Below are positions 1-33,177 of a stretch of 64,000 nt of DNA, one piece after another; position 1 is the first letter of the stretch; the number at the start of each line of letters is the position of its first letter. Under the pieces are notes generated by a model. It searched no databases and was not told the origin of the DNA. It worked only from the letters and a program-made list of their open reading frames with translations. The DNA is taken from contig JAXDGW010000010.1 in NCBI GenBank assembly GCA_034664845.1, forward strand, positions 58,936 through 122,935. The letters are read 5' to 3'. Made by a program: the position numbers and the translations under genes. Source of the DNA: Thermoanaerobaculia bacterium (GTDB lineage Bacteria; Acidobacteriota; Thermoanaerobaculia; Gp7-AA8).

Positions 1-465
1 GGTCGTCAGGACGACTGCTGCCACGCCACGCTGTCGCGCGCTTTCGATAAACGCGCGGGTCAGAAGCTTGCCGGCGCCGGTTCGCTGCACGCGGGGATCG
101 ACCGCCAGCGACATGAGCACGGCGCCAGCCGAGAACGTTTGCGGTGGCGCATAGAGCGCGCGCAGGAGCCGCCGCACGATCGAGGGCTTCCGCAACAGCG
201 CCGTCATCGACGCGAGTCCAAACCGCAGCCAGCGGCGCCGGGCCGCCCGGCGGTAAAAACCGCCGCTGGCTGCACCTGCCACGAGTCCGACGACGCGCTC
301 CTCATCAACGGCCACGAAGGCGATGCTTTCTTCGTCAGAAACGATGGCGCGATACAGCTCGCGCAGAAAGCGAGCACCGAGAAACGAGAGAAAGAAGCCT
401 GGGAACGCGGCGAGATGAACCTCCGCCGCAGCGCCGGCATCCTTCATCAGCAACGGCCGGATCAC
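1..465 (-). CDS. GNAT family N-acetyltransferase (3' end beyond window edge)
   Basis: Manual minus-strand translation from a GTG at 465: MIRPLLMKDAGAAAEVHLAAFPGFF...VLMSLAVDPRVQRTGAGKLLTRAFIESARQRGVAAVVLTT. This matches GNAT motif A (V-x-P-x-x-Q/R-x-G-x-G/A, acetyl-CoA binding). The frame stays open to position 1 and the gene begins 6 nt after the upstream GT4 stop. It is absent from the ORF track because it runs off the edge. Confidence 0.45.
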   Translation of the reverse strand, partial: MIRPLLMKDAGAAAEVHLAAFPGFFLSFLGARFLRELYRAIVSDEESIAFVAVDEERVVGLVAGAASGGFYRRAARRRWLRFGLASMTALLRKPSIVRRLLRALYAPPQTFSAGAVLMSLAVDPRVQRTGAGKLLTRAFIESARQRGVAAVVLTT

Positions 466-470
466 GACGC

Positions 471-1703
471 TCAACGCGCCACACCTTCGATGATGTCCAC
501 GAGCCGCGGCAGACAAACGTCCGTGGTCACGGACGCCAGGGCCCAATCGCGGCCCGCACATCCCATCCTTTGCCGCACCTCGAGTGAGAGCCGCTTCATC
601 GATCGGATCGCGTCCGCCAGCACCGCGGGATCATCGGGAGCCACAACCACGCCCGCACCACTACCGAGAATCACAGCCGCAGTGTCGGAGTCCGGCAGTG
701 CGGTGGCAAGCACCGGCCTTGCGGAGAGTAGATAGCTGATGAGTTTCGACGGCACCGAGGCGGCCGATTGGGCCGCGTGCGTCGGAAGGAGCACCGCGTC
801 TGCGGCGTGCAACACATCGATCGTCCCTGGCCATGGGTACTCGAAACGAATACGCTCCGGCGCGATATCTCCCGCCAGACGGCGGCAGCGGTCGAGCGAT
901 GCACCCTCACCTGCGACGAGGAGGTAGATATCAGGCTCGTCGTCGAGATAGCGAAAGGCCTCGATCACCGTCTCCACCCCGGCAGAGACGCTGACGTTGC
1001 CTCCGTACACAAAGAGAAAGGCGCTGCGCGGGATGCCATTGCGGTCGCGGCAGGCTTCGGCGCGGCCAGGCGTTGCCTCCGTCCCCTGCGCCGGCAACCA
1101 GTTCGGAACGATGTGGATCCTGGACATGTCGACGCCGCGCGTCCGCCGGTAGTGCTCTGCAAACCGCTCCGAGATCACGACGACGGCAGCGGCGGAGCGG
1201 ACCGTACGCCGGTCGATTGACATAAGCACGCGCGCGGTGATGCCGCTGCCGCGACGGCCCTGCGATATCAGCGATTCCGGGTAGATGTCCTGGACAGAGA
1301 CGACGAACGGGATACGGCGCAAGCGGGCCACGAAGCCGGTCATCGCGGCCGCGAAAATCGGCCATGTGTTGGCGTAGATCACAGACGGCTTCCTGCCGAA
1401 GAGCAGCGCCAGGGACGACGTGAAACCGAACGAGACGTTCTCCGCCAACCTGCTGAGCATCGACGAGCTCCGCGAAAATGACGAAAGGCAACGAACGATG
1501 CGGAAGCCTTCCGCCGCCACCTCGAGCCGGAACAGGGCACGCCGATAACCGGCGTACAACGTCCCGGCAGGACGGTTCGGAAACGGCGCAATGACCGTGA
1601 CGTCGTGTCCGCGTGCAGCCAACGCGCGCGCCGTCTCGAAACTCGTCCGGCTGGAGACGACCGGCTCGGGAGGGAAGACGCAACTGACTACGGTGATCTT
1701 CAC
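471..1703 (-). CDS. Glycosyltransferase family 4 (GT1-fold, GT4-like)
   Basis: ORF 471..1763. N-terminus VKITVVSCVFPPEPVVSS...ARGHDVTVIAP and C-terminal GT4 sugar-donor region. The likely start is the GTG at 1703, which overlaps the upstream gene's TGA (1700-1702) as GTGA. Confidence 0.7.
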   Translation of the reverse strand: MKITVVSCVFPPEPVVSSRTSFETARALAARGHDVTVIAPFPNRPAGTLYAGYRRALFRLEVAAEGFRIVRCLSSFSRSSSMLSRLAENVSFGFTSSLALLFGRKPSVIYANTWPIFAAAMTGFVARLRRIPFVVSVQDIYPESLISQGRRGSGITARVLMSIDRRTVRSAAAVVVISERFAEHYRRTRGVDMSRIHIVPNWLPAQGTEATPGRAEACRDRNGIPRSAFLFVYGGNVSVSAGVETVIEAFRYLDDEPDIYLLVAGEGASLDRCRRLAGDIAPERIRFEYPWPGTIDVLHAADAVLLPTHAAQSAASVPSKLISYLLSARPVLATALPDSDTAAVILGSGAGVVVAPDDPAVLADAIRSMKRLSLEVRQRMGCAGRDWALASVTTDVCLPRLVDIIEGVAR

Positions 1704-2911
1704 GTCTTCGCCGCCAACACTCGCGTATATACGTCGACCAGGCTGTCGGTGATGACGTCCCACGAGTACCGCTCCGCGACGAGACGGCGCCCCGCCTCCC
1801 CCATCGCGCGCAGCGACGAACGATCGCCGAGGAGCTTGCGCAACGCATCCGCCATCTTCTCCGCGTCCGTGTTGACGATGACTCCCGCGCCCGCTTCTTC
1901 AACTTCGGGGAAGTTGCATTCTGGCGAGAGCATGACCGCCGTTGCGCTTGCGAGCGCTTCGAGGACGGCGTTGGAAAAGCCTTCCGCGAGCGACGGGAGA
2001 GAAAAGAGATCGGCGCGCGCCAGCACGTCTGCCTTTTCCTCACCGCCGATCATGCCGGCAAAGAACACACGATCACCGAGTACGTCCCGCGCGCGTTCGC
2101 GCCACGCTGTTTCCGAGCCCCACTCATCGGGTCCGGCAATCATCAACACAGCGTCGGGAAAGTCGTCCATCACGCGCAGAAAAGCATCGAGCAGCTTGTC
2201 CGTACCTTTGATCGGATGCAGGCGCCCGAGGAAGAGGATCATCACAGCGTCGGGCGAAACGCCGAAGCGGGCGTGGACGCGGGCTGCGGCTTCCGGCCGG
2301 GGCGGTGGGATGTCGACGCCGTTCGGCACGATTGCGATTGGAGTCCGTACGCCGAGGGCACGATACGACGTCCGTTCTGCCTCCGTGAGTGCCACGAGCG
2401 AGGCCGCGTGGTTCATGATCGGCTTTTCGATCGCACCGATGTACAGCCGTTTCTTCAAGCCGCGAAAGCGCAAGCGCTCCTCGGCAAAGCATCCCCGCTG
2501 GCTATACAGAAGCGGCTTGTGATGGCGCAACGCCGCATGAGCCGCAGCGTACGAGGGATAGACGAACGGCCCCTGCGTGTGCACGACGTCGATGTCCGGC
2601 ATGAGCCGGTCGAGCGCCGCGCGCATTTTGGGCGCGTACATGAACCCGATCGATCGCGAGAGATACGGCACGAAAGGAAGCAGCTTCTGCATCGGCTCCT
2701 GCCGCCGGAAATACCAGACCTGCACGCCGTCGACGTCGACAGGAACACCGAGCGGGACGTCGATATCCTGATCGTTGTTCGCGGTCGTCGTGACGACGGT
2801 GACGTCATGCCCTTTGCGGACGAGTCTCTCCGCCGCCGCGGAGACCGAGACGATCGGTCCTCCCAATCGATACGCTGGTTTGTAGCCGGTACCGGCGTAA
2901 AGAATCCTCAT
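1700..2911 (-). CDS. Glycosyltransferase family 4
   Basis: This is the C-terminal 403 aa of ORF 1700..3616, beginning MRILYAGTGYKP...GHDVTVVTT... with GT4 fold motifs (EGFSNAVLEALA). The ATG at 2909-2911 overlaps the upstream gene's stop (ATGA). The N-terminal 235 aa of the long ORF are Arg-rich out-of-context sequence. Confidence 0.75.
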   Translation of the reverse strand: MRILYAGTGYKPAYRLGGPIVSVSAAAERLVRKGHDVTVVTTTANNDQDIDVPLGVPVDVDGVQVWYFRRQEPMQKLLPFVPYLSRSIGFMYAPKMRAALDRLMPDIDVVHTQGPFVYPSYAAAHAALRHHKPLLYSQRGCFAEERLRFRGLKKRLYIGAIEKPIMNHAASLVALTEAERTSYRALGVRTPIAIVPNGVDIPPPRPEAAARVHARFGVSPDAVMILFLGRLHPIKGTDKLLDAFLRVMDDFPDAVLMIAGPDEWGSETAWRERARDVLGDRVFFAGMIGGEEKADVLARADLFSLPSLAEGFSNAVLEALASATAVMLSPECNFPEVEEAGAGVIVNTDAEKMADALRKLLGDRSSLRAMGEAGRRLVAERYSWDVITDSLVDVYTRVLAAKT

Positions 2912-3894
2912 CAGCGTTTGACGGCGCGGCCGACCACAAGTCCTTCGCGCGCGGCATCCACGTCTCGCAGACCCGCCTCGGTCAGCCAGTCGCGCACCAT
3001 CGCGGCCGTCTGCGGATGATCGTGCGCCGGAGCGAGCATGTCGAACGTGTCGAGGATGGCCCACTCGCGATGTTGTTCCATCGTGAGCGGGAAGACGCGG
3101 TAGTACATCATGATCGGAAGGACATACCGGAGGCGCCCGCCGATCAGCGGAATCGCCGCAAGCACCCTGCTGACCGGCAAGAGCTTTGGTACCAACCGCT
3201 CCACGATGGCGAAGAGCCGGCCCTGCCGCATCCGGCGTGTAAAGGGCCGCAGCCAGTATTTCGACCACAACACGTTCGCCGCCAGCTTTGGATAAAAATC
3301 GAGTGCGAGCTTGCCACCTGCCTTGAGCGGCGACGACAGGGCGAGCACGGCACGATGAGGATCGGGCGTGTGTTGCAGAACGCCCATGCAATAGACGTAG
3401 TCGAAGGAAGAGGCCTTGACCGGCAGCCGATAGACGTCGGCCTGGACAACGGAGAGCCGCGGATGCGGTCCGAGGTTCGCGTAGCACGCGTCGACGGCCG
3501 TGGAGTGATCGACGGCGACCACCTCCGCGCCTGTCGCGAGCGCCACCTCGGCGAAACGGCCGGCACCGCAGCCGATGTCGAGCACCCGTTTGCCTGCCAT
3601 CTCTTCCGGCGTCCATCGCGATTCTTTGAAAAAGCGCTCCCGCGCGATCGGCAAACCAGTGCGGCTATCGAGCTGTGTCGTCCTGAATTTGTTCCATTGG
3701 AATCCGAACGAATTGGCGTACGTGTCTGCGGGAACGAAGCGCGGAACGTGTCGCACGATCGGGAACGTTCGCGGGCAACCGGCGCAGTGCAGGGTGCCGG
3801 TTTCGATACTTTCTCCGCTCCGCACCGCCGGGTCGAGCGTCAACGAGCCGCCACAATCGGGACAAGCGAGGATGTCGAGGAGGTCTGGCGTCAT
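2911..3894 (-). CDS. Trm112-like zinc-ribbon + class I SAM-dependent methyltransferase
   Basis: N-terminus LDILACPDCGGSL...LHCAGCPRTFPI (Trm112p-like Cys4 ribbon), then the FGFQWNKF motif and SAM motif I (VLDIGCGAGRF). It is paralogous to ORF 10628..11704. Confidence 0.7.
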   Translation of the reverse strand: MTPDLLDILACPDCGGSLTLDPAVRSGESIETGTLHCAGCPRTFPIVRHVPRFVPADTYANSFGFQWNKFRTTQLDSRTGLPIARERFFKESRWTPEEMAGKRVLDIGCGAGRFAEVALATGAEVVAVDHSTAVDACYANLGPHPRLSVVQADVYRLPVKASSFDYVYCMGVLQHTPDPHRAVLALSSPLKAGGKLALDFYPKLAANVLWSKYWLRPFTRRMRQGRLFAIVERLVPKLLPVSRVLAAIPLIGGRLRYVLPIMMYYRVFPLTMEQHREWAILDTFDMLAPAHDHPQTAAMVRDWLTEAGLRDVDAAREGLVVGRAVKR

Positions 3895-3916: not shown

Positions 3917-4228
3917 TTACTCGCGCAACCAGAGCACGAACATGGTCAGCGCGAAGATGCGATGCGAGTTTACGAGTCCGCGCTCCTGCCCTTCGAGCAA
4001 GCGCCGGACGACGGTCTGGCCGAAATGCTTCGAAGCGCCGAGAACGTCGCGAAAGAAGCGGCCCCAGTCGCAGAGCCGGCGGTGGCCAAAGCCGGCCCGG
4101 CCGTCCGGCGCGCGCCAAACGCCCTGATCATCGGGCCCGCGGTGGCGAAGGGTCAACGCCATCGCCTCGAGGATCTCGATACGGACGACTTCACCCGGCC
4201 GGGCCGTGGTGCCGCAGATTCCGCACAT
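3917..4228 (-). pseudogene. Remnant of a second asparagine synthetase (AsnB) gene: N-terminal glutamine-amidotransferase fragment only
   Basis: 103-aa ORF MCGICG...LRHRGPDDQGVW...GFGHRRL. This is the Cys2 nucleophile and the conserved HRGPD and GHRRL motifs of class-II GATase. Homology to the intact AsnB at 7954..9777 stops after about 55 aa. It lies in an otherwise gene-free 342-bp gap. Confidence 0.5.
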
Positions 4229-4236: not shown

Positions 4237-5355
4237 CTACCCTATCTCCGTCGTTGCAGGCTTGTGGCGTGACGCGGCAATATCGATGGCGCGCCGGTAA
4301 GCATCTTCGTAGCGCTTCGCCGTCTCTTCGAGCGACTGCGAGGTTAGCGCCGACCGCGCGCGTCCCGCACGCGCTTCCGCCTCCGGACGATCGGCGAGCG
4401 CTTTCGCAATCGCAGCGCCGATGGCCCGGTTGTCGCCGCCACTGACGAAAAAGGCCGCATCATCAGCGAGAATCGAGCGGTACGCCGGGATGTCGGAAAC
4501 AATCAGCGGCACGCCCGCAGCAATCGCCTCGAGCACGGCGTTCGGATGGCCTTCGCAAAGCGAAACCGCAACAACGGCGCTGGAACGTCGTAGCCAGGAA
4601 GCGATGTCGTGCACGAATCCCGCGAAGATGACACGAGCGTCGAGGCCCGCCGCACGGACCTGAGCCATCAGGTCGTCGCGCATCGGCCCGTCGCCGCAAA
4701 AGGCGAACTTAGCGCGCGGCCGTTCACGAACCACGTGCTGCAGCGAGTCCACGAGCGTCGTCAGGTTTTTTTCCGGGCTGAGACGTCCGACATGGATGAC
4801 AAGCTCGTCGCCGGTGCTGATGCGTGAGTCGTCGAGAGGAGCGGCCGAAGCCATCTCCCCCATCGGAACGAAGTTTGGGATGACCTCGATTCGGGAACGA
4901 TCCACAGCCTGGGCCGCCCAGTAGCCGGCTCCACCGTCCGAGTTAGGCAGGATCAGAGTGGCGTGCCTGCCCGTCGCGACGCGGACGCGATTCAACAGCG
5001 TGGGTGGATAGCTGAGCGCGGCGCTTCTCTCGCTCATTACCCAGGGGACGCGCAACAACCGCGCAACCCCACCGCCGACGATGTCCATGTGTATCAACCA
5101 GGTGTGCACCACGTCCGGTCGAGGGCGGCGTACAAGTTTGAATGCCCGCGCCACGAGCGACGGATCGTATTTTGCCGCGGTGGCGAGACGATGGAGCGTC
5201 ACCCCGGTTCCTGCAAGTCTGTCGGAATTGACTCCGGGTCCAACAAACGCGACGTGTACGTCGTGGCCACGCCGGCTCAACTCTGACGCCAGATAGGCAA
5301 GCTGCCGCTCCGCCCCGCCGCCGGTCATTGTGAGAATCATGTGGAGGATCCTCAC
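4237..5355 (-). CDS. Glycosyltransferase family 4
   Basis: (V/M)RILHMILTMTGGGAERQLAYLASELSRRGHDVHV... is a typical GT4 N-terminus, with an E-x7-E-type C-terminal domain. The GTG start at 5355 overlaps the upstream TGA. Confidence 0.75.
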   Translation of the reverse strand: MRILHMILTMTGGGAERQLAYLASELSRRGHDVHVAFVGPGVNSDRLAGTGVTLHRLATAAKYDPSLVARAFKLVRRPRPDVVHTWLIHMDIVGGGVARLLRVPWVMSERSAALSYPPTLLNRVRVATGRHATLILPNSDGGAGYWAAQAVDRSRIEVIPNFVPMGEMASAAPLDDSRISTGDELVIHVGRLSPEKNLTTLVDSLQHVVRERPRAKFAFCGDGPMRDDLMAQVRAAGLDARVIFAGFVHDIASWLRRSSAVVAVSLCEGHPNAVLEAIAAGVPLIVSDIPAYRSILADDAAFFVSGGDNRAIGAAIAKALADRPEAEARAGRARSALTSQSLEETAKRYEDAYRRAIDIAASRHKPATTEIG

Positions 5356-9779: not shown

Positions 9780-10682
9780 TTATGGTTCGTGGACGACGGC
9801 GCGGGGCGTTCGCTCAAATACGAATTCATTGCATCCGAGACCGCCGCCGGCAGTCCTCAGGTTGCGCAGAGAAAAACCGCGCTCGTGCAGGAAGCGAAAA
9901 ACCTCTTCCGGCCGGGCCGTCTCAAATGGATATCCGCCGAGCCAGTCGATCCAGTCGTGCACGAGGGACATCCCGCGCTCCGATTGATAATCCTGATAAC
10001 GGCGCAGCGGATTACGAAGCGACAACACATCGCCGGCAACGCCGCGCACGACCCAATACGGAACGAACGCCGTGAGCACGGCCACCCGTCCAATGGCGCT
10101 CGCGCTGTAAAGGCGCTTGATCTTCTTCCAGAGGCGGGTTTTCCGTCGCTGATCGTTATAGATTGCAATGAAGAGCACGCCGCTGTCGGCAACGAGCTCA
10201 CTGGCATTCGCAATTGCGTCCCACATCCTGCCTGTGTGGTGGAGAACACCCCACGAGTAAACGACGTCCCATCGGCCGAGAGAAGCCACATACGCATCGT
10301 CGAGGATGTCACCACGTTCGACGGTCCAAGGCACGCTGTCCGGTGCGAAACGGCGTTTGATCTCGGCCGTCGTAGCGACACTCTTCGGGTCATAGTCGAA
10401 CGAATGCACGCGCGCGGCGCCTAGACGAACCGCCGCCAGCGTGGAGAGTCCGCTTCCTGAACCGGCATCGAGAAACGTTCGTCCGGCGATCGCCTCCCTG
10501 CCGCCGATCATCTCGAGCATCGACGCCTCGGCAGCCTCGATGCGCCGCTCGTCGACACATTCGAGGAAGCGCGACCAATTCGCGCCGAACTCGAAGCGCA
10601 CCTGGTCGCTGGCGGACGATGATGAGGTCACGCCGTGAGCTCTCCCGACTGCCGGTTTGCCGCTTTTTCCGCGACCACCCAA
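9780..10682 (-). CDS. Class I SAM-dependent methyltransferase
   Basis: SAM motif I FLDAGSGSGLSTL and a C-terminal Trp/Tyr-rich extension. The start may instead be the GTG at 10631, which forms a GTGA overlap with the upstream stop. Confidence 0.65.
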   Translation of the reverse strand: MGGRGKSGKPAVGRAHGVTSSSSASDQVRFEFGANWSRFLECVDERRIEAAEASMLEMIGGREAIAGRTFLDAGSGSGLSTLAAVRLGAARVHSFDYDPKSVATTAEIKRRFAPDSVPWTVERGDILDDAYVASLGRWDVVYSWGVLHHTGRMWDAIANASELVADSGVLFIAIYNDQRRKTRLWKKIKRLYSASAIGRVAVLTAFVPYWVVRGVAGDVLSLRNPLRRYQDYQSERGMSLVHDWIDWLGGYPFETARPEEVFRFLHERGFSLRNLRTAGGGLGCNEFVFERTPRAVVHEP

Positions 10683-19831: not shown

Positions 19832-19862
19832 TGTCGAGATCTCCAATCCGAATTGCGGAATT

Positions 19863-23698: not shown

Positions 23699-23740
23699 TC
23701 GATTGAGAGCCCGGAGGCCGGAGAGAGTCTCTCCGCCGGC

Positions 23741-26245
23741 TTAACGGCCGCGCGGGATGACCGGGTTAAACGTTGGCGTCGTGGTGGTGAGATTGGCCGT
23801 GGTGACGACGCTGAAGCCGTTCATGAGCCAGACCACGTTCGCACCGGTCGCTGGGTTGTGCCAGAGAATGTCGCCAGTGCCATTGCCGTTGAAATCGCCC
23901 GCCCCGCCGAAACGGAACGCGCTGTTCATGGTCTGGATGAACGAGCCCGCGGCAGCTGTAGCACCGTTCATCAGCCACATGACACTCTGCCCGGTGGCAT
24001 CGTTGTGCCATAACAGATCTGCCTGACCATCGTTGTTGAAGTCGACCGCCGCGGCGAGGTTGTACGCGGGATCGACCGAGTTGATCTGTCCTCCGCCGTT
24101 GAGCGAAAAACCATTCATGAGCCACATGTAGTTCGCGCCGGTGGCTGGGTCGCGCCAGAGAAGGTCGCCTTTGCCATCTCCATTAAAATCGGCGGCACCG
24201 GCAAGACGTACATTCGCAGTCGTCGTTTGTATGAAACTACCTGCCGCAACCGTGACGCCGTTCATCAGCCACATCACGTTCTGGCCGGTGGCATCGTTGT
24301 GCCACAAGATGTCCGCTTTGCCGTCGCCGTTGAAGTCGATCGCTGCGGCGAGATTGTAGGCGGCGTCGAACGTCTGGATTTGACCACCGCCGATGACGTT
24401 GAATCCGTTCATCAGCCACATGTAGTTGACGCCGGTCGCCGGATCGCGCCACAGAAGGTCGGTCCGGCCATCGCCATTGAAATCGGCAGCCGCGCCGAGC
24501 CGGACGTTCGTCGTCGCGTTGGAGATGAACGCGCCTGACTTCGTTGTGGTTCCGTTCATCAGCCACACCACGTTCTGACCGGTGGCGTCGTTGCGCCACA
24601 TGATGTCGTCGATGCCGTCGCCATCGAGATCCCAACGCGCCCGCCGCACCGGGTTCACGGTTACCGTACCAGTTGGACTATCGGCAAACCCGCAACTATT
24701 CGTTACACGCACCCAGTAGCTTGTCGTGCTGGAGGGCGACACTGTGACAGACGCAGCGGTTTGGCCCTGCATCGGAGAAGACGTATTGCCGCTCGTTCCC
24801 ACATACCACTGATACGACAATGGCGCGGTACCGCTTGCGGTGACGCTGAGCGTGGCCGAACCTCCCGCGGTAATCGTTTGTGATGCCGGTCCGGATTGGA
24901 TCGACGGCGGAGTACACGTTGAACAACTACCGCCGGGATAAACGGCGGCGGCGGCGTGCTGGTCCCACGCCTGCAGCGCTGCGTTGAGACCGTGCGTAAC
25001 ACTTGCTGTCATGACCGCGGAGGAAGAACACTCCAGCGATGGATCGCTCGAGCACGGCACGTTCGGATTGTCCGCGCGGGTCTGGTCGGAGTGGCGGAAC
25101 CCGAGTGTATGGCCGAGCTCATGGGCGATCGCGGTCGGCCAATCGCCACTGTTCAGGAGCAGAGAACAATTCGCGATCCCGCGGTTCATCTCCACGTCGC
25201 CTTCGGAGGTGCTGAAGAACGTCTCGGTGCCGAGCGAGTTTGTGCCGATCGTCTCCGTGACGCCACCGACGCCGAGAGTGCCCGCATATGAGTTGCTCGA
25301 GCAGGTAAACGGCGGAGCACCATAGGCGGATAAATCGCGCTCGAACAACACGGTATTTGCACTGTCAGGACCAGCGAGTCCGGTTGTGTGTGTCGTGTCG
25401 GTGCCCCCATAGGCATAGTTGATTTGGGACGGACAATCATTGGTCCAGGTGGCGAGCCCGGTCTGTACAGCGGGAAAACCATTGCCCGGCGCGCCCGGCT
25501 CACCATTGGCGTTCGCGTAGAACACTACCGGACTCGGGAAAACGGCCCAGCGAGCGCCACGCCCGCTTCCGACTGTGTACGAGGTGGCGGAAAACGTGGC
25601 CAGCGTGATGAGGGCCGGCGGCGAGCTCATCGTGCCCATCGCCCGTCGCTGACCACTTGACTCACTCATCGCGAGCGGCTGGCTGTCAATCACGTAATCC
25701 TGGCGCGCCGGTCCTCCGTGAGCTTCCGCACGCACAAAGTTCAGGAACTCGGTGGCCGCCCGGCGCAGCTCACGGTGCGACGCGCCACTGGGATCCCATC
25801 CGACGATGTCGGCCTCATCCCGAACGGCGATCGCCCGCCCGCGCACATCTTCTGTGAGGCGGAACTTGCCGAGCACGAGGTCAGTAACGGCCCACGATCG
25901 CTGTGGTGTCATTGTAAGAAAAAGAAGCACGCGGTCACCAACAGCGAAGGAAGGAGCGCCGGGGACGAATGTGGCGCGTCCATCGTAGACGCCACCGGGC
26001 TCATGCACTTCGAAAACAGCGCCCGGATCTCCTTTGATGGTTTCCTCGGATGCCATGACGGTCACCGTTTCGATTCCGCCATGCGTGTTGAGCTGAACGT
26101 ATGAGCTTGTTGCGTTCGCTACTACGATCGCGTCGGCGCGCCTGACCATGTCACGATCGGGAGGCACGATGAACGTCGCGGCGTGGACGATGGTGGCAAC
26201 AAACAGGAGAGAGGGGGCGGCGAGAGCTAGAGTTCTGGGCTTCAT
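23741..26245 (-). CDS. Secreted metzincin-type zinc metalloprotease with Ig-like domain and about 8 C-terminal FG-GAP/beta-propeller repeats
   Basis: Signal peptide MKPRTLALAAPSLLFVATIVHAATF. HELGHTLGFRHSD matches HExxHxxGxxH, followed by a Met-turn candidate (AVMTA). C-terminal repeats DFNGDGKADILWHNDATGQNVMWLMNG, about 46 aa each, give nucleotide-level tandem repeats at 23760-24660. Confidence 0.6.
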   Translation of the reverse strand: MKPRTLALAAPSLLFVATIVHAATFIVPPDRDMVRRADAIVVANATSSYVQLNTHGGIETVTVMASEETIKGDPGAVFEVHEPGGVYDGRATFVPGAPSFAVGDRVLLFLTMTPQRSWAVTDLVLGKFRLTEDVRGRAIAVRDEADIVGWDPSGASHRELRRAATEFLNFVRAEAHGGPARQDYVIDSQPLAMSESSGQRRAMGTMSSPPALITLATFSATSYTVGSGRGARWAVFPSPVVFYANANGEPGAPGNGFPAVQTGLATWTNDCPSQINYAYGGTDTTHTTGLAGPDSANTVLFERDLSAYGAPPFTCSSNSYAGTLGVGGVTETIGTNSLGTETFFSTSEGDVEMNRGIANCSLLLNSGDWPTAIAHELGHTLGFRHSDQTRADNPNVPCSSDPSLECSSSAVMTASVTHGLNAALQAWDQHAAAAVYPGGSCSTCTPPSIQSGPASQTITAGGSATLSVTASGTAPLSYQWYVGTSGNTSSPMQGQTAASVTVSPSSTTSYWVRVTNSCGFADSPTGTVTVNPVRRARWDLDGDGIDDIMWRNDATGQNVVWLMNGTTTKSGAFISNATTNVRLGAAADFNGDGRTDLLWRDPATGVNYMWLMNGFNVIGGGQIQTFDAAYNLAAAIDFNGDGKADILWHNDATGQNVMWLMNGVTVAAGSFIQTTTANVRLAGAADFNGDGKGDLLWRDPATGANYMWLMNGFSLNGGGQINSVDPAYNLAAAVDFNNDGQADLLWHNDATGQSVMWLMNGATAAAGSFIQTMNSAFRFGGAGDFNGNGTGDILWHNPATGANVVWLMNGFSVVTTANLTTTTPTFNPVIPRGR

Positions 26246-26382: not shown

Positions 26383-26967
26383 TCACTCATTGAGCTGATA
26401 ATCGGGATACGCGCCGTCACGCCGCGAAAGGATCGGATCAGTCAGAGGCCACTGAATTCCGAACGCCGGATCGTCCCACCGAATCCCTCGGCTTGCCTCT
26501 GCTACAAAACGCGCTGACATTTCGTAATAAACGTCGGATTCGTCGGCCAAGGTCTGGAACCCGTGAGCAAAATCCTTGGGAGCGTATACCGCGCGCCGGT
26601 TTTCAGCCGTGAGCTCGACGGCGGCCCAATGGCGATACGTCGAGGAATCGCGGCGCAAATCGACGATGACGTCGAGTATCGCACCGCGGACACAGCGAAC
26701 GATCTTCGCTTCCTGATGCGGCGCCGCCTGATAGTGCATCCCTCGCAGTGTCCCCTTTTTCCTGTTGTGCGAGATGTTGCACTGTGCAATGCAAGGCTCG
26801 AGGCCGAGCTCGAGAAACTCCTCCGCACAGAAGGTGCGGGCGAAGAATCCACGATCGTCTGCAATGGGCTCGATATCAATCACGTACGCACCGGCCAGTG
26901 GGAGAGCGGCGAACCTCAATGCAGAACCTCGACCTCTGGAATGAGAACGGCGAACCGCCCTCCCCAC
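26383..26967 (-). CDS. rfbC: NDP-4-keto-6-deoxyhexose 3,5-epimerase (RmlC/RfbC cupin family)
   Basis: AYVIDIEPIADDRGFFARTF...RGMHYQ...KIVRCVRGAILDVIVDLR (RmlC His/Tyr catalytic region). A possible TTG start at 26919 forms a TTGA overlap. Confidence 0.75.
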   Translation of the reverse strand: MGRAVRRSHSRGRGSALRFAALPLAGAYVIDIEPIADDRGFFARTFCAEEFLELGLEPCIAQCNISHNRKKGTLRGMHYQAAPHQEAKIVRCVRGAILDVIVDLRRDSSTYRHWAAVELTAENRRAVYAPKDFAHGFQTLADESDVYYEMSARFVAEASRGIRWDDPAFGIQWPLTDPILSRRDGAYPDYQLNE

Positions 26968-28142
26968 TCACGGATGTGGGCCATCTGTCTCACGATCTCG
27001 TCGCGAAGATTCCACGGAAGTATCAAAACGTAATCCGGGCGCGTCTCGGTGATCCTCTCCGGATCATGGATGGGAATGTGCGTCCCGGGGAGAAAAAGAC
27101 CTTGTTTGTGAGGGCTGCGGTCGACTGTGTATTCGACAAGATCGGCGCGAATGCCACAGTAGTTGAGGAGCGTATTGCCCTTGGCTGGTGCACCATAGCC
27201 AACCACATGCTTTCCCTCTTCCCGGGCGCCGATAAGGAACTTGAGGATGGTGCGTTTCAGTTGGCTGACCCGATCGCCGAAAGTCGTGTACGTCGCAAGC
27301 CGGTCGAGCCCAAACTCGCGCTCCCGACGCTCCAAATCGGCCACGGCCGGGGAGGCGGGAGCCTCTCCCTTGTGCATTGCATAGATACGAAGTGAGCCGC
27401 CATGCGTCGGCAACTCGTCGACGTCGACGATCTCAAGGCCGTGCGCGCTGAAGATCTGCCGCGCCGTGAGCAGCGAAAGATAAGAGAAATGCTCGTGATA
27501 GATCGTATCGAACTGGTTTCCGATCATCAGTCGCATGAGATGCGGAAACTCCATTGTGACCGTGCCGCCGGGCTTCAGCGCGGTCTGTAATCCCTGAACG
27601 AAGTCGTTGATGTCCGGCACGTGTGCCAAGACGTTGTTGCCGAGGAGGAGATCGGCCTTGCGGCCTTCCGCGGCCAGTTCGGAGGCCGTGTTCTGGCCAA
27701 AGAACCGAACCAGTGTGTCGATTCCCTTCTCGCGCGCCACATCGGCGACATTTGCCGCCGGCTCGATACCAAGGACAGGAATCTGCGCCTGCCGAAAGTA
27801 TTGCAGGAGGTAGCCGTCGTTGCTGGCGATCTCAATCACCTGAGACTCCCGACTAAGACCGAGGCGGACAATCATTGCTTCGCAATACCTTCTCGCGTGA
27901 TCCAGCCAGCTCTCGGAGTATGACGAGAAGTAGGCGTAATCGCTGAAGATGTTCTCCGGAGTCTGCACGGCGGGCAGCTGAACGAGAAAACAGCGTTCGC
28001 ACACATAGACGGTCAGCGGATAGAAAGGCTCCATCCGATCGAGCTGGTTGGCGCGCACATACGCATTCGACAAGGGCGACATCCCCAGGTCGGCAAAAAT
28101 ATGGACGAGCGGCTCATCGCAGAACCGGCAGGACAACGACAT
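26916..28142 (-). CDS. NDP-hexose C-methyltransferase (TylCIII/TcaB9-like: N-terminal Zn-ribbon + class I MTase + C-methyltransferase C-terminal domain)
   Basis: MSLSCRFCDEPLVHIFADLGMSPLSNAYV (Cys-rich zinc-binding N-domain), VIEIASNDGYLL (motif I) and a C-terminal domain. The start at 28140-28142 overlaps rfbG's TAA (TAATG). Confidence 0.65.
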   Translation of the reverse strand: MSLSCRFCDEPLVHIFADLGMSPLSNAYVRANQLDRMEPFYPLTVYVCERCFLVQLPAVQTPENIFSDYAYFSSYSESWLDHARRYCEAMIVRLGLSRESQVIEIASNDGYLLQYFRQAQIPVLGIEPAANVADVAREKGIDTLVRFFGQNTASELAAEGRKADLLLGNNVLAHVPDINDFVQGLQTALKPGGTVTMEFPHLMRLMIGNQFDTIYHEHFSYLSLLTARQIFSAHGLEIVDVDELPTHGGSLRIYAMHKGEAPASPAVADLERREREFGLDRLATYTTFGDRVSQLKRTILKFLIGAREEGKHVVGYGAPAKGNTLLNYCGIRADLVEYTVDRSPHKQGLFLPGTHIPIHDPERITETRPDYVLILPWNLRDEIVRQMAHIREWGGRFAVLIPEVEVLH

Positions 28143-29197
28143 TACTGACTGCCCTCGAAGCGTTCGATCTGCTGGTCCATTAGAGCGGCGGCGGAGCTGC
28201 CACCCAACAATCCCCCATAAAACTCGACGAGCCAATCGACTGCGGTTTCGAGCGGAACGCGCGGCCGCCAGCCGAGGAGTGCCCGCGAACGGGTGCTGTC
28301 GAGTTTGAGCGTAACGGCTTCCGGCACGTGAGCTTCTGAATCGCGCGTCCAGGCCGCGTCGTTGCCCCAGGCACCCAAGAGGCGATCGGCGATCCACTCG
28401 ACGGAATGCGCATCGCCCTCGTTCGGCCCGAAGTTCCAGGCGCCCGCCTCCGCGGTGCCGCTCCAGAGCGCTTCGGCGAGAACGAGGTACCCGTTGAGGG
28501 CATCGAGCACGAATTGCCATGGCCGGATCGCGGCAGGATTGCGGATCTGGGCCGGCGAGCCTGACGAGAAGGCGCGAATCAGATCGGGCACCAGACGGTC
28601 CTGCGCCCAATCACCGCCGCCGACAATGTTGCCGGCGCGGGCAGTCGCCACGCGGGGCGCGTTCCCGCTCTGAAAGAACGAGCTCCGATACGCTGCCGTG
28701 ACGAGTTCTGCACACGCCTTGCTGTTGGAGTAGGGGTCCTTGCCACCCATCGGCTCGTTTTCGCGGTACGGCCAGAGCCATTCGCGATTCTCGTAGCACT
28801 TGTCGCTGGTGACGACGACGACCACACGCACCGCGGGGCAGCGGCGAACTGCGTCGAGCAGGTGAACGGTGCCCATGACGTTGGTCGAGTACGTTCCAAC
28901 AGGATCGTCGTAGGACGCGCGGACGATCGGCTGCGCGGCGAGGTGCAGGACAACCTCGGGGTTCGCTGCCGTCATCGCCCGCTCGACAGCGGCGAGATCG
29001 CGGATGTCTGCGATGACTGATTCGATCCCGGCGCCGATCGTTGCTTCTTCGTAGAGGTTTGGCTTCGTCGGGGGATTGAGAGCGAAGCCGGTCACTGTCG
29101 CACCCGCCCGCTTGAGCCAATGTGTAAGCCACGCGCCTTTGAATCCGGTATGCCCGGTGAGGAACACGCGCCGGCCGCGCCAGAGGTCGGGCGTCAT
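28142..29197 (-). CDS. rfbG: CDP-glucose 4,6-dehydratase
   Basis: RVFLTGHTGFKGAWLTHWL...TSDKCYEN. Length and motifs match RfbG. It begins at MTPDLW within the longer ORF 28142..29431. Confidence 0.8.
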   Translation of the reverse strand: MTPDLWRGRRVFLTGHTGFKGAWLTHWLKRAGATVTGFALNPPTKPNLYEEATIGAGIESVIADIRDLAAVERAMTAANPEVVLHLAAQPIVRASYDDPVGTYSTNVMGTVHLLDAVRRCPAVRVVVVVTSDKCYENREWLWPYRENEPMGGKDPYSNSKACAELVTAAYRSSFFQSGNAPRVATARAGNIVGGGDWAQDRLVPDLIRAFSSGSPAQIRNPAAIRPWQFVLDALNGYLVLAEALWSGTAEAGAWNFGPNEGDAHSVEWIADRLLGAWGNDAAWTRDSEAHVPEAVTLKLDSTRSRALLGWRPRVPLETAVDWLVEFYGGLLGGSSAAALMDQQIERFEGSQ

Positions 29198-29201
29198 GAC
29201 G

Positions 29202-29969
29202 TCACCATACTTTCCAGGGCGCCTTCCCCGTTCCCCAGAGTGCATCGAGGAGGGTCTTGTCGCGAAGCGTGTCCATCGGCTGCCAGAAGCCGTCATGTTT
29301 GTACGCCGAGAGGTGTCCGTCGCGCGCAAGCGTCTCGAGCGGCTCGCGCTCCCAAATCGTCTCATCGCCGCCGAGGTAATCGAATACCTGCGGCTCGAGT
29401 ACGAAGAACCCGCCGTTAACCCAGCTGCCATCGCCGGGAGGCTTTTCGGCGAACGTCCGGATCTTCTCCGCCTCGATATCGATCACGCCGAAACGGCCGG
29501 GTGGCTGAACCGCCGTCAACGTCGCAAAGGTCTTTTGCTCGCGGTGAAAATCGATCAGCTTCGCGATGTTGACGTCGGCCAGCCCGTCGCCATACGTGAA
29601 ACAGAACGTCTCTCCATCGACGTGGTGCCGGACGCGTCCGAGGCGGCCACCGGTCTGGGTGTCCTGGCCGGTGTCGACCAGCGTGACCGTCCATGGTTCG
29701 GATGTGCTGTGATGCACGGAAACTTCATTGCTGCGCAGATTGATCGTCACGTCGGACATGTGCAGAAAGTAGTTCGCGAAGTACTCCTTGATCATGTAAC
29801 CCTTGTATCCAAGGCAGATCACGAAGTCGTTGATCCCATGCGCCGAGTACAACTTCATGATGTGCCAGAGGACGGGCATTCCTCCCAGCTCGACCATCGG
29901 CTTCGGACGAATGACTGTTTCTTCGCTGAGTCGCGTGCCGAGTCCACCGGCGAGAATGACGGCTTTCAT
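29202..29969 (-). CDS. rfbF: Glucose-1-phosphate cytidylyltransferase
   Basis: [75 protein letters not shown] is nearly collinear with enterobacterial RfbF. ATGA overlap with fcl. Confidence 0.85.
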   Translation of the reverse strand: MKAVILAGGLGTRLSEETVIRPKPMVELGGMPVLWHIMKLYSAHGINDFVICLGYKGYMIKEYFANYFLHMSDVTINLRSNEVSVHHSTSEPWTVTLVDTGQDTQTGGRLGRVRHHVDGETFCFTYGDGLADVNIAKLIDFHREQKTFATLTAVQPPGRFGVIDIEAEKIRTFAEKPPGDGSWVNGGFFVLEPQVFDYLGGDETIWEREPLETLARDGHLSAYKHDGFWQPMDTLRDKTLLDALWGTGKAPWKVW

Positions 29970-30937
29970 TGGCTGACCTCGTCCGATCCGCGTTGTTGAT
30001 TTCGATGGCCGTTGAACCATTCGATCGTGGCGGCGAGTCCGCCGGCGAATGACGTCTGGGACTGGAATCCGAACTCGCGCGCGGCGCGCGAGACATCAAG
30101 CCGCCGGTTGGGCTGTCCATTCGGCTTGGTGCTGTCCCACTCGACGTTGCCTTCGTATCCGACGAGGTGGCGGATCGTCTCGGCAAGATCCTTGATCGAG
30201 ATCTCCTTCCCGCTTCCGAGATTCACGGGGTCCGCGCCGTCGTAGCGGCTGGCCGCTGCCACGATTCCATCGGCAGCATCGGCCGCGTAGAGAAATTCGC
30301 GCGTCGGCGTGCCGTCACCCCAGAGCGTCACGGTCGGGCGACGGAGCTCCTTTGCGTCGACAAACTTGCGGATCATGGCGGGGATGACATGGCTCGACTC
30401 GAGATCGAAGTTGTCTCCGGGGCCGTAGAGGTTCACGGGAAGAAGGAAGATGCCGTTGAAGCCGTACTCCTGCCGGTAGGCCTGAAGCTGGACGAGGAGC
30501 GCTTTCTTGGCGATGCCATACGCCGCGTTCGTTTCCTCGGGGTAGCCATTCCAGAGATCGTCTTCGCGGAACGGAATCGGCGCGAACTTCGGATAGGCGC
30601 AGATCGTTCCGAGACAGACGAACTTGGCGACGCCGGCAAGGCGCGCTTCTTCGATGAGCTGAATCCCCATGATGGCGTTTTCGTAGAAAAAACTGCCCGG
30701 ATGCTTCTGGTTCGCGCCGATTCCGCCAACGACCGCGGCGGCGTGGATGATGATGTCGGGCTTCTGTGCCGCGAGATACGCGCGCACTGCGGCGGCGTCC
30801 CTGAGATCGAGCTCCTGTTTGCGCGGCGCGAGGATCGCGGCGGGCTGCTCCCGTTCCAGACGCTGGCGAATGAACGTGCCGAGAAAACCGCCGCCGCCGG
30901 TCAGAAGAACGCGCCGGCCCGGCCAGAATCCGCTCAT
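29966..30937 (-). CDS. fcl: GDP-L-fucose synthase (GDP-4-keto-6-deoxy-D-mannose 3,5-epimerase/4-reductase)
   Basis: [14 protein letters not shown]...[23 protein letters not shown]...NAAYGIAKK (Y-x3-K). ATGA overlap with gmd. Confidence 0.85.
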
Positions 30938-32007
30938 GAGCCGCCCGCTTTCAACTGCCCCTCGTTCGCGGCGAGCATGAGGTCCGCATCGACCATCATG
31001 TTGACGAGCTCCAGGAATGTCGTCCGCGGCGCCCAGCCGAGCTTTTCCCTCGCTTTTGTGGCGTCGCCGCACAGCAGCTCGACTTCGGACGGACGGAGAT
31101 AGCGCGGGTCGATGACGACACGCGTCTTTCCCGTTGCGGCGTCGATTCCCTGCTCGTCAGACCCGCTCCCTCGCCACTCGATGCGGATACCGGCGCGCTC
31201 GAAGGCAAGCTCGCAGAATTTGCGCACCGTGTGCGTCTCGGAAGTGGCCACCACGTAGTCGTCCGGCTGATCCTGTTGCAGCATGAGCCACATTGCCTCG
31301 ACGTAATCCCGGGCGTAACCCCAGTCGCGTTTTGCGTCGAGGTTGCCGAGATAGAGGCATTCCTGCAGACCATGCTTGATGCGGCCGACCGCTCGCGTGA
31401 TCTTGCGCGAGACGAACGTTTCACCGCGGCGCGGCGACTCGTGATTGAAGAGAATGCCGTTCGAGGCGTACAAACCGTAAGCCTCGCGATAGTTCACCGT
31501 CATCCAGTACGCGTAAACCTTCGCTACGCCATACGGGCTTCGCGGATAGAAAGGAGTCGTCTCGCGCTGCGGTGTCTCCATCACTTTGCCGAACATCTCA
31601 GACGAGGATGCCTGATAGATCCGCGGACGCAGTTCCAGCTCGCGAATGGCCTCGAGGAGCCTCACCGATCCGAGCCCGGTTACTTCGCCCGTGTACTCAG
31701 GCGTGTCGAACGACACCTTCACGTGACTCTGGGCGCCGAGGTTGTAGATCTCATCGGGCTTGACGATTCGAAGGATCCGATTCAGCGACGAGGCATCGTT
31801 GAGGTCGCCGTAGTGAAGGATCAACCGCCGGCCCAGCTCGTGCGGATCCTCATAAATCGAGTCGATGCGCTGCGTGTTGAAGGACGACGAGCGCCTGATG
31901 ATGCCGTGCACCTCGTAGCCCTTTTCGAGCAGAAGCTCGGCAAGGTAGGAGCCGTCCTGGCCGGTGATGCCGGTGATGAGTGCTTTTTTCAGCGCCTGTT
32001 CAGCCAT
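30934..32007 (-). CDS. gmd: GDP-mannose 4,6-dehydratase
   Basis: [46 protein letters not shown]...SSSEMFGK...[12 protein letters not shown]. Canonical Gmd. Confidence 0.9.
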
Positions 32008-32121
32008 CAGTCTTGCGTCCCGGGGACTCACCGGACGGGCTTCGCCCCCTTCGGTATACACACCGAGAGATCAGCACGGGAAAGCGACCCGCTTCGCATG
32101 TTCCTTCGCCGGCAGCCCGCG

Positions 32122-32478
32122 TCAGGCGGACCGGTCCGGCGTGATCACCAAACGGCGCACCTCTTCGGAAAGGTGCGTGATCTCCTCCGCCAGCCGATCG
32201 TATTCATCGCGCTTGCGGCGGAGGAAGGCGCGCGTGACGTCGATCTTTTCCTCGATTCCGCGAGGTGTGAGGACGTACAGGTACGCCGACTTGTTGTTGC
32301 TGTTGCGGAAGTTCCGAACCTTGACCCACCCCTTCTCGACGAGGGCCTTGAGGCAGTAGTTCGCTTTGCCGATGCTGACGCCGAGCGCCCGCGCCACCTG
32401 ACGTTGGGTGGCAGTGGGATGCTCCTCGATGTAGCTGAGAAGGCGGTAGCGGATCTCATCCGTCGGGTCGTAGGTCAT
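32122..32478 (-). CDS. EPS-associated MarR-family winged-helix transcriptional regulator
   Basis: 118 aa. RYRLLSYIEEHPTATQRQVARALGVSIGKANYCLKALVEKGWVKV...YLYVLTPRG matches the small MarR-type regulators found in exosortase/PEP-CTERM EPS loci. Confidence 0.65.
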   Translation of the reverse strand: MTYDPTDEIRYRLLSYIEEHPTATQRQVARALGVSIGKANYCLKALVEKGWVKVRNFRNSNNKSAYLYVLTPRGIEEKIDVTRAFLRRKRDEYDRLAEEITHLSEEVRRLVITPDRSA

Positions 32479-32545
32479 CGGTCGTGTTCAACTGTTGAAC
32501 GCACCACGATTTAACCATTACGCTCCGCCGAAAGCAACGCCACGG

Positions 32546-33127
32546 TCACCGCTTTGCGCGGCGAAGAACCGGCCGCTCAAACTCGACGGCCAGGTTCTTC
32601 CGCAGCAGAGAAACCGAGACGACGAGGCGATCGCCGCGGGCGCTGCGGACGACCACGCCCGAATAGCCGGAGAACGGACCTTTCATGATCGTGACGACGT
32701 CGTCCGGCAGAAGGTCTTCATAAACCTCGAACGATGCGCCGGCGAGTTGGAGCCGGCGGATCTGCGCGAGCTGTGCGCCGAGCAGGTCCTGATCTTCGAC
32801 CTCGATGATGCGTACCGTCACGCCGCTCCGCAGCGCGACATCACGTCCCCGCGCGTCCCCGCGCAGGAATACGTATCCCGGAAACAGCGGGACGTACGAG
32901 CGAAAACGCCGCGACGATCGTTCCGAGACGTGCTCGACCTGCGGGAGATAAAACGGGATTTGCTGATCGAGCAGGCGGCGAGCCAGGACCTTTTCCTGGC
33001 GGCTCCGCACATGCGTGACGTGCCAGGGGAAGGAATCCGCGGTCAGCGCGAAGAGATCGTCGGGAAAAAGGTCGGCTTCTTTCGGGAGCAGCGGCATGGC
33101 GGCTGCGAACAGCATCACCCCCGGCAC
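32546..33127 (-). CDS. NusG/RfaH-paralogue transcription antiterminator (UpxY/LoaP-like)
   Basis: NGN domain WHVTHVRSRQEKVLARRLLDQQIPFYLP...FPGYVFLRGD and KOW motif GDVVTIMKGPFSGYSGVV. It is the first gene of the minus-strand glycan operon. Confidence 0.7.
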   Translation of the reverse strand: MPGVMLFAAAMPLLPKEADLFPDDLFALTADSFPWHVTHVRSRQEKVLARRLLDQQIPFYLPQVEHVSERSSRRFRSYVPLFPGYVFLRGDARGRDVALRSGVTVRIIEVEDQDLLGAQLAQIRRLQLAGASFEVYEDLLPDDVVTIMKGPFSGYSGVVVRSARGDRLVVSVSLLRKNLAVEFERPVLRRAKR

Positions 33128-33177
33128 GTTTATTCCGTCATCACGCTGCTTGACGGGTCGCCGCCGCGCTGCGATCC

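Follow-up and report, generated by a model that had tools for sequence, protein, structure and literature searches.

A conserved element downstream of a NusG paralogue gene and a MarR_EPS regulator gene at the head of a long Acidobacteriota glycan operon: a candidate pause and recruitment site

How does a NusG paralogue encoded at the head of a very long glycan operon find its target? Specialised NusG paralogues are a standard bacterial way of expressing very long, costly surface-polymer and antibiotic operons; to our knowledge, target finding is known for only three such systems, RfaH with ops, UpxY with opsX, and LoaP with a hairpin. The question was raised by a 64-kb stretch of contig JAXDGW010000010.1 from a Thermoanaerobaculia bacterium (62% G+C), referred to here as the window. 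A first-pass annotation had described a unidirectional glycan operon led by a NusG paralogue and a MarR regulator of the type associated with exopolysaccharide (EPS) genes. This description was confirmed by a gene model based on a listing of open reading frames (ORFs), start-codon inspection and Pfam and NCBIfam scans: all genes supported by these families between 33097 and position 1 were on the minus strand, and the second gene belonged to the MarR_EPS family. Downstream of both regulator genes a conserved leader element of about 45 nt was identified, which is a candidate site for polymerase pausing and recruitment of the paralogue.

The element (32030-32075, minus strand; core ACCGAAGGGGGCGRAGCCYG) matched its covariance model with 58 bits (E = 2e-13). 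It comprises a first hairpin, H1, in which TCGGT (32066-32062) pairs with ACCGA (32055-32051), followed by AGG and the 12-mer GGGCGAAGCCCG (32047-32036), which contains a second small hairpin, H2 (GGGC, loop GAA, GCCC). The block lies in the spacer between marR and gene 3 and was unchanged even where gene 3 differed. Exact-pattern matching placed it in 33 of 83 loci, on the strand of the paralogue every time; with the covariance model (R1) the window and 54 of 82 other loci were matched, without exception on the strand of the paralogue and just downstream of it. All 55 matches had E values of 3e-4 or lower, and no second copy was present in the 64-kb window.

The core was invariant among loci whose paralogues were only 41-80% identical, and the position of the element was kept with or without an intervening marR gene and regardless of the next gene. 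At loci that lack marR the core begins 40-75 nt past the paralogue stop codon, and a conserved gene of the UDP-N-acetyl-hexosamine dehydrogenase type follows 15-60 nt after that point. Because these loci keep the element after the paralogue, it belongs with the paralogue rather than with marR. Rfam 15, JUMPstart and EAR/epsC included, gave no match at the gathering score in the window and nothing relevant at E ≤ 10 in 31900-33250, and no description of the element was met in the literature. One locus binned as Rhodothermales (L027) carries two copies of the element, at 4633-4670 and 5001-5046, downstream of the paralogue, with marR upstream of the paralogue; it is read as a rearranged version of the module. 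Six of the loci without marR (L021, L025, L030, L031, L035 and L051) share a recurrent GGCGCTTC motif directly 3' of the paralogue stop codon, which in L051 sits in a small hairpin (GGCGCT...AGCGCC).

Across the matches, H1 was formed by (T)CGGT and ACCG(A) around a loop of 4 to about 30 nt that varied in sequence and length. H2 had the form GGGC-GRA-GCCY and was paired in 99.5% of the cells of a model-based alignment of 54 distinct sequences. One of its pairs was GC in 46 sequences, AU in 7 and CG in 1, and another was GU in 30 and GC in 23. The H2 covariation score was above that of 500 of 500 shuffles and of every slid control, in an alignment that had been fitted to the covariance model. 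When the pyrimidine at alignment column 65 was taken as position -1 of a pause site, G was found at -10 in 53 of 54 sequences, a pyrimidine at -1 in 54 of 54 and G at +1 in 51 of 54, and H1 ended at -12 to -15 relative to the putative pause. This predicted geometry of an upstream hairpin, G-10, Y-1 and G+1 resembles the ops pause sites of RfaH and UpxY. As a lead and no more, the 12-mer of the family, GGGCGRAGCCYG, agrees at 7 of the 10 specified positions with GGCGGTAGnnTG, which we take to be the E. coli ops consensus.

A metagenome scan with the 19-nt core gave at least 120 loci, 98 of them with enough upstream DNA to be informative. Among the matches listed, the paralogue was upstream of the element in 52 of these 98 loci (with marR between them in 14) and marR alone was found in 4. 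In at least 18 of the 42 other loci listed, a second family of NusG paralogues starts directly after the element (L084, L095, L098, L103, L113, L120, L129, L141, L146, L151, L171, L178 and L192, and others), such that the core abuts the TTG or ATG start codon. Members of this second family are 24-32% identical to the first, score 92-94 bits with the UpxY model and carry the motif WYALWTHSHCEQLV. At their loci the loop of H1 is a long extended helix of variable sequence, and AAGGGGG precedes the TTG start by 7 nt, at Shine-Dalgarno distance. A reading of AAGGGGG as a ribosome-binding site is plausible in this second family only; at the window locus there is no start codon within range. A few metagenome copies precede other envelope genes (YvcK-like, DegT, PEP-CTERM-associated protein) with no paralogue in the available DNA.

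The element was also considered as an alternative-sigma promoter. Three features led us to reject this as a primary reading: covariation in the hairpin, a fixed position on the same strand, 40-75 nt past the paralogue stop codon, and contact with a start codon in the second family. A promoter may lie inside the 3' end of the paralogue gene.

Gene 1, the specialised NusG paralogue, encodes 183 amino acids with an NGN domain (Pfam NGN, 37 bits) and a KOW-like C-terminal domain. The first-pass annotation had placed it at 32546..33127; the gene stood, and its start was moved by the family alignment from GTG 33127 to ATG 33097 (MPLLPKE), giving 32546..33097 on the minus strand. When compared with the NusG, RfaH, UpxY and LoaP models of NCBIfam it scored best with UpxY (NF033644; 73.0 bits, E = 2.7e-20), below the cut-off of 100, and gave 36.9 and 27.8 bits with the two RfaH models (TIGR01955, cut-off 144.5; NF006534, cut-off 124), 33.2 bits with LoaP (NF033641, cut-off 125) and 23.8 bits with housekeeping NusG (TIGR00922, cut-off 135.7). 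It does not sit in a secE-nusG-rplK context; its neighbours are marR and a divergent co-polymerase-like gene. On these scores gene 1 is a specialised paralogue, not housekeeping NusG, that is closest to UpxY yet outside all curated families. In an AlphaFold2 (AF2) model the NGN domain had a predicted local distance difference test (pLDDT) score of about 90, and the C-terminal domain was modelled as beta-strand with a pLDDT of 45-60.

At least 986 homologues of gene 1 were found, and nearly all of the genome matches were to Thermoanaerobaculia, Holophagales and unclassified Acidobacteriota. Relatives with a paralogue 54-80% identical repeat the gene order of divergent co-polymerase-like gene, paralogue, marR_EPS and sugar genes; more distant relatives have neither marR nor the divergent gene. 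Eleven Holophagales loci (L054-L061, L065, L069 and L076) carry stand-alone paralogues with a conserved upstream TTGGTAGAGT block, a convergent gene downstream and no adjacent element; these may be trans-acting, RfaH-style members.

Gene 2 (32122..32478, minus strand) encodes a 118-amino-acid EPS-associated winged-helix regulator of the MarR family, which scored 150.9 bits with MarR_EPS (TIGR04176; cut-off 88) and has glycan genes on both sides. It has 927 homologues, for the most part in Acidobacteriota. In alignments of the spacer between the paralogue and marR, a -35 element TTGCnn, a 17-18-nt spacer ending in TG, a -10 element TnnAAT, the palindrome GTTCAA(Y)-N-GTTGAAC and the marR start codon followed each other in fixed order, with the palindrome 4-12 nt after the -10 element and the start codon 5-12 nt after the palindrome. 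The window has a predicted promoter, P_marR, at 32509..32537 on the minus strand (-35 TTGCTT, 32537..32532; 17-nt spacer with TG; -10 TTAAAT, 32514..32509). A perfect palindrome, GTTCAACAGTTGAAC (GTTCAAC-N-GTTGAAC; 32486..32500), lies 8 nt past the -10 element and 7 nt before the marR ATG and is the predicted MarR_EPS operator. Twenty-eight distinct loci have the pattern GTTCAA-NNN-TTGAAC in this position, and the full promoter architecture was found in 19 of 27 distinct marR loci. The palindrome was the only site with two or fewer mismatches in the 64-kb window, where 0.11 were expected by chance.

This arrangement points to an autoregulated MarR promoter between the two regulator genes, with the operator overlapping the transcription start. 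It also bears on the reading of the locus as a unit driven only from upstream of 33127, which the conserved promoter and palindrome do not support: a second, MarR-gated start probably exists, and entry into the sugar genes would be gated at P_marR and not solely upstream of gene 1. In consensus scans for promoters and terminators the number of sites was no higher than expected from shuffles; the scans were too strict to detect P_marR, given its -35 sequence TTGCTT. No description of a MarR_EPS operator was met in the literature, where our search for the EPS-associated MarR regulator brought up only two annotation mentions, both in passing.

We propose that the locus uses a variant of ops/NusG-paralogue antitermination with two levels of control, in which the element is the candidate pause and recruitment site. 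We favour this reading while judging its prospects to be evenly balanced. Gene content, family scores, the conservation, linkage and strand of the cis elements and a limited covariation are observed; promoter activity, MarR binding, pausing, loading and antitermination are inferred. At initiation, the paralogue would be expressed from the divergent region upstream of it, and MarR_EPS would bind GTTCAAC-N-GTTGAAC over the start site of an extended -10 promoter and so gate its own production as well as passage into the sugar genes. During elongation, RNA polymerase would transcribe the element about 45-90 nt past marR, and H1 would form in the nascent RNA. The polymerase would then meet a consensus-type pause (G-10 ... 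Y-1 G+1) 12-15 nt after H1, within the 12-mer, which is itself able to form H2. The paralogue would be loaded onto the complex paused at the element, in the manner of RfaH at ops and of UpxY at opsX. By displacing housekeeping NusG it would make the polymerase resistant to termination and to Rho for the next 32 kb, as far as a 12-bp hairpin at the operon's end; the 1- and 4-nt gene overlaps would add local translational coupling.

A wider claim is made tentatively, and with rather less than even confidence. The element, as H1, AAGG and the 12-mer, would be an undescribed recruitment signal, phylum-wide, for at least two diverged families of Acidobacteriota paralogues, acting in cis and probably in trans, with the choice of locus made by MarR_EPS and not by a UpxZ-like anti-NusG protein. 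If the recruitment reading is true, the choice of locus would be delegated to the MarR_EPS repressor, because the core is invariant and not locus-specific.

Several observations weigh against recruitment of the paralogue by the element. Terminator-like sites of the hairpin type inside the operon were not above the shuffle expectation; because such hairpins are not enriched, the need for antitermination is an assumption. About 28 relatives, the stand-alone Holophagales genes among them, have no adjacent element, and many paralogues share a single invariant core, two of them within one metagenome-assembled genome (L017 and L026), unlike the locus-specific opsX of Bacteroides. Some of the metagenome matches listed lie inside coding sequence and are probably due to chance, and in the second family the pause register moves by one, with TTG after GCC. 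A single base pair carries the covariation in H2, which may reflect no more than two independent events. The core of H1 never varies and shows no covariation, and its folding energy was not significantly different from that of shuffled upstream sequence (mean z of -0.3 to -0.5). Finally, the AF2 model gives no confident sign of an RfaH-like autoinhibited C-terminal domain in gene 1, in a region where its pLDDT is 45-60.

Four alternatives were weighed. The element may act without the paralogue, as an antiterminator RNA of the EAR or put type or as a signal for RNA stability, processing or translation, so that the linkage would reflect a shared position in the operon. Two adjacent small hairpins do resemble RNA-only antiterminators, and the GU pairs in H2 favour structure at the RNA level. 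The Shine-Dalgarno-like AAGGGGG of the second family and the copies that precede the other envelope genes listed above also fit this alternative. The element is, however, tied to two paralogue families of 24-32% identity in two arrangements, a pattern not easily explained unless there is a functional link; in the first family the next start codon lies anywhere from 15 to at least 60 nt away, and the element is not followed by a start codon as a ribosome-binding site would be. The lack of an Rfam match extends to EAR and JUMPstart. We regard this alternative as unlikely.

To the same degree improbable, in our view, is a mechanism of the LoaP type, in which the paralogue would bind the RNA of the element through a KOW or NGN surface, and not non-template DNA, and at hairpin terminators would work against NusA. 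LoaP itself needs no more than a small RNA hairpin in the leader (PMC12691694), H2 has compensatory changes and GU pairs, and the element sits between the regulator genes and the target genes. Against this stand the LoaP score of gene 1, far below its cut-off, and the absence of a UNCG loop. No NusA-type terminator was found after the element and no terminator-like site in 32000-32122, and the invariant sequence reaches beyond the hairpins and fits the pause consensus.

The view closest to that of the first-pass annotation is a single promoter upstream of the paralogue, UpxY-style action from the paralogue's own 5' leader, an accessory role for MarR, and one obligately coupled transcript of 33 kb. 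The paralogue does head a co-directional array and is closest to UpxY, and at relatives without marR the short distance from the paralogue stop codon to the element makes co-transcription likely. The likeness to UpxY held for the protein. As for a leader site of the UpxY style, a hairpin-plus-pause-like element exists but lies downstream of marR, and the upstream spacer, only 89 nt long and common to the divergent gene, holds no copy of it. The conserved promoter and operator between genes 1 and 2 also speak against a single start.

The gene junctions bear on the same view. At all 14 overlaps listed in the first-pass annotation the start codon does overlap the upstream stop codon, although two of them depend on the choice of start: those called by the Joint Genome Institute (JGI) place gene 27 at ATG 5340, which abolishes the overlap at 5352, and gene 25 at GTG 7960, which gives a 7-nt overlap. 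At 2911 the overlap is of 1 nt, in the sequence TGATG. With further overlaps at 26916, 20953, 15341 and 471, 15-18 of the 31 junctions overlap, as a single coupled transcript would have it, and 13-16 do not; five gaps are of 40 nt or more (67, about 114, 83-137, 42 and 44 nt). Obligate translational coupling across the whole locus was thus an overstatement, because 13-16 junctions do not overlap. The hairpin at 23699-23740, which had been cited as an internal barrier, is real and has a 7-bp stem, but it is unremarkable as a terminator, with no U-tract and a z of -0.3 against shuffles. Folding of the five larger spacers and of this hairpin gave no z below -0.5, and a three-locus alignment showed no conserved internal promoter before the FG-GAP gene that ends at 23741. 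On balance a single upstream promoter is a poor prospect.

That MarR_EPS alone regulates the operon, with the paralogue adjacent by accident and acting elsewhere or dispensable, would suit the stand-alone Holophagales paralogues and the lack of terminator enrichment, but is very hard to credit when the order of paralogue, element and glycan genes is kept in the window, in 54 genome loci and in 52 metagenome loci among the matches listed.

Two hairpins inside genes were seen on the operon strand, at 14080-14102 and 16001-16026 (minus strand), within methyltransferase and flippase coding sequence, respectively. Both have 10-11-bp stems in the sense strand and T-rich tails, and they could be intragenic terminator-like sites for a processive complex to pass.

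The operon had been put at about 28 genes and 33 kb. The long array stood and the count did not: 32 minus-strand genes run from 33097 to position 1, the last of them cut by the window edge, and a second assembly (L204) extends the array by the rest of a GNAT gene, a DegT aminotransferase gene and a gene for a Bac_transf initiating transferase, with convergent genes next. The full unit, taken over the window and L204, has 34 genes over about 35.0 kb. The JGI gene calls for L204, which were made independently, match the present gene model except for two start codons. None of the ten longest ORFs on the plus strand between 33097 and position 1 had a Pfam match, and they are therefore regarded as shadow ORFs. 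About 45 nt past the last gene, Bac_transf, lies a 12-bp perfect GC-rich hairpin (AGAGGCGAGCGG-AAA-CCGCTCGCCTCT; L204:15815-15860), about 1.9 kb beyond the window start on the operon strand, flanked by an A-run and, at its other side, by TCGGTTTG. It is probably a bidirectional terminator shared with the convergent gene, and it went undetected by a simple terminator scan.

All genes that follow marR in the window are on the minus strand. The first of them form two sugar branches. One consists of GDP-mannose 4,6-dehydratase (gene 3, 30934..32007; GDP_Man_Dehyd, 519 bits) and an NAD-dependent, GDP-fucose-synthase-like epimerase/reductase (gene 4, 29966..30937; ATGA overlap with gene 3). The other, a nucleoside diphosphate (NDP)-hexose branch, consists of a sugar-1-phosphate nucleotidyltransferase (gene 5, 29202..29969; ATGA overlap with gene 4), a short-chain dehydrogenase/reductase (SDR)-type NDP-sugar dehydratase/epimerase (gene 6, 28142..29197), an NDP-hexose C-methyltransferase (gene 7, 26916..28142; Methyltransf_14, 222 bits; TAATG overlap with gene 6) and an NDP-4-dehydro-6-deoxyhexose 3,5-epimerase (gene 8, 26383..26919; dTDP_sugar_isom, 205 bits). 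Gene 9 (23741..26245) had been taken for a protease, which no model supports; family models and a signal peptide identify a secreted FG-GAP/Ig-domain protein, with homologues in the related loci L001 and L005.

There follow genes for an ATP-grasp ligase (gene 10, 22496-23698), a methyltransferase (gene 11, 21873-22499), an unknown protein (gene 12, 20953-21876), a DegT-like protein (gene 13, 19863-20960), an HMGL-like aldolase (gene 14, 18785-19846), a CmcI-type methyltransferase (gene 15, 18006-18740) and a DegT aminotransferase (gene 16, 16840-18000). Gene 17 encodes a Wzx-type flippase (15341-16843; Polysacc_synt_3, 42.5 bits, cut-off 23), gene 18 a family 2 glycosyltransferase (GT2; 14461-15351), gene 19 a methyltransferase (13820-14464), gene 20 a glycosyltransferase (12786-13823), gene 21 an epimerase (11709-12782), genes 22 and 23 methyltransferases (10628-11704 and 9780-10631), gene 24 an AsnB-type amidotransferase (7954-9777) and gene 25 a GT2 (6869-7960). 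Gene 26 (5352-6872) encodes a membrane protein of nine segments with no family match, a possible Wzy, and is followed by a family 4 glycosyltransferase gene (GT4; gene 27, 4237-5340), an AsnB fragment (gene 28, 3917-4228), a Trm112-methyltransferase gene (gene 29, 2911-3894), two GT4 genes (genes 30 and 31, 1700-2911 and 471-1703) and the GNAT gene truncated at the window edge (gene 32, 1-474). The 103-amino-acid ORF at 3917-4228, which was also called as a gene by JGI, consists of an amidotransferase start, N-terminal MCGICG, joined to a short C-terminal tail and looks like the collapsed remnant of an AsnB-type gene; an intact AsnB gene is present at 7954-9777.

The enzyme set thus includes at least eight methyltransferases, six glycosyltransferases, two to three DegT aminotransferases, the ATP-grasp ligase, the AsnB amidotransferase and the HMGL-type aldolase, next to the two sugar branches. 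As parts of a Wzx/Wzy pathway there are the flippase, above its Pfam cut-off, a candidate co-polymerase with a fold match of low TM-score, the Bac_transf transferase just outside the window and the polymerase candidate without a family match. We propose that the operon makes a Wzx/Wzy-type heteropolysaccharide (O-antigen, capsule or EPS) with heavily methylated, aminated deoxy-sugars.

The co-polymerase candidate is the product of the divergent gene beside the paralogue (33187..34800, plus strand), which encodes 537 amino acids with one transmembrane segment at each end (hydrophobic residues 28-58 and 487-520) and had no Pfam or NCBIfam match. Its AF2 model (mean pLDDT 79) gave top Foldseek matches in the PDB that were all Wzc or WzzE, with a probability of 0.98-1.0 and TM-scores of only 0.2-0.25. 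The predicted likeness to polysaccharide co-polymerases (Wzz/Wzc) is held with moderate confidence only, because the TM-scores are low. The gene is kept beside the paralogue in ten related loci (L001-L006, L009, L011, L012 and L014). The intergenic region between the two genes (33098..33186) is 89 nt long, which is why the leader of the paralogue is short, and a ten-locus alignment showed the conserved blocks CAAGGATCGCAGC ... GTCAAG ... GGAATAAA. A consensus scan of this region gave no sigma-70 match; it presumably holds the promoters of both genes.

Upstream of the operon, a second co-directional block of sugar genes occupies 35700-49444 on the minus strand. It encodes a UDP-sugar dehydrogenase, an epimerase, a sulfatase-like protein, a transaldolase, a heptose pathway of the GmhB/GmhA/HddA type, an FG-GAP and DUF11 surface protein, a weak Peptidase_G2-like ORF, an NTP-transferase and a DegT protein, and has neither a copy of the element nor a NusG paralogue.

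The nearest known system is UpxY/UpxZ with opsX in Bacteroides, for which a pause hairpin reaching to -12 to -9, a small hairpin in non-template DNA and a consensus pause have been established by experiment (PMC11213015). As there, a specialised NusG paralogue comes first in a long polysaccharide operon and a small regulator second, UpxY is the best model for the paralogue, and the candidate site has a nascent-RNA hairpin upstream, a consensus-type pause, here predicted from sequence, and possibly a small non-template hairpin. The start codon directly after the site in the second family recalls class-2 UpxY genes (+9). In contrast to UpxY, the paralogue of the window stays under the family cut-off, gene 2 encodes the DNA-binding MarR_EPS with its own predicted promoter and operator and not UpxZ, and the site is downstream of both regulator genes and not in a leader before the paralogue. 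The core is invariant across loci and paralogues whereas opsX is locus-specific, no invertible promoter was seen at the window locus, and the phylum is Acidobacteriota.

RfaH with ops/JUMPstart of enterobacteria shares a 12-nt element in a transcribed polysaccharide-operon leader, with G-10, Y-1 and G+1, and some copies of the present element may sit at loci without an adjacent paralogue, which suggests action in trans. The paralogue of the window differs from RfaH in its model scores (37 and 28 bits, where the cut-offs are 144 and 124) and in its place in cis, heading the operon that it would target. AF2, at low confidence in this region, lends no support to a C-terminal domain that is alpha-helical and autoinhibited, Rfam JUMPstart gave no match, and the 12-mer of the family differs from the canonical ops. 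LoaP, with its dfn and mln leader hairpin in Bacillus and other Firmicutes, likewise lies beside a long biosynthetic operon and has a small conserved leader hairpin, which it requires. It differs in its score (33 bits for gene 1, cut-off 125), in its UNCG tetraloop (GRA being the H2 loop here) and in its NusA-dependent terminator, none being detected adjacent to the element, and its operons make polyketide, not polysaccharide.

The first-pass annotation had presented specialised NusG paralogues at polysaccharide genes as characterised mainly in Bacteroides and a few other lineages; this has to be qualified, since such associations have already been catalogued bioinformatically (PMC7593976). 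In that study (Wang et al. 2020), the RfaH-like cluster CL4 is described as a cluster of NusG paralogues with a helix-turn-helix regulator and envelope-biogenesis genes among the neighbours. The likeness to the present locus, in its regulator and nearby envelope genes, is one of description, and not of taxa or sequences. NusG paralogues near polysaccharide genes, in one cluster by a helix-turn-helix regulator, were thus already known; the element and the predicted MarR_EPS operator appear to be new, and the cis element is the main addition. The system would work like UpxY/opsX and RfaH/ops yet falls outside both families as they are defined.

These findings offer a clean, testable fourth case of target finding, in an uncultured and globally abundant soil lineage, with an invariant 20-nt core, a defined geometry, more than 100 natural variants, two arrangements and a separate predicted repressor site, defined by its sequence. 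The covariance model and the palindrome provide annotation handles for the starts of glycan operons in Acidobacteriota metagenomes. The locus opens the questions of whether ops-type recognition is ancestral to the UpxY/RfaH radiation, whether an RNA hairpin and non-template DNA cooperate outside Bacteroides, and how control of initiation and of processivity combine on one operon. If the recruitment reading is true, Acidobacteriota would have a third solution to the problem of which polysaccharide operon receives the antiterminator.

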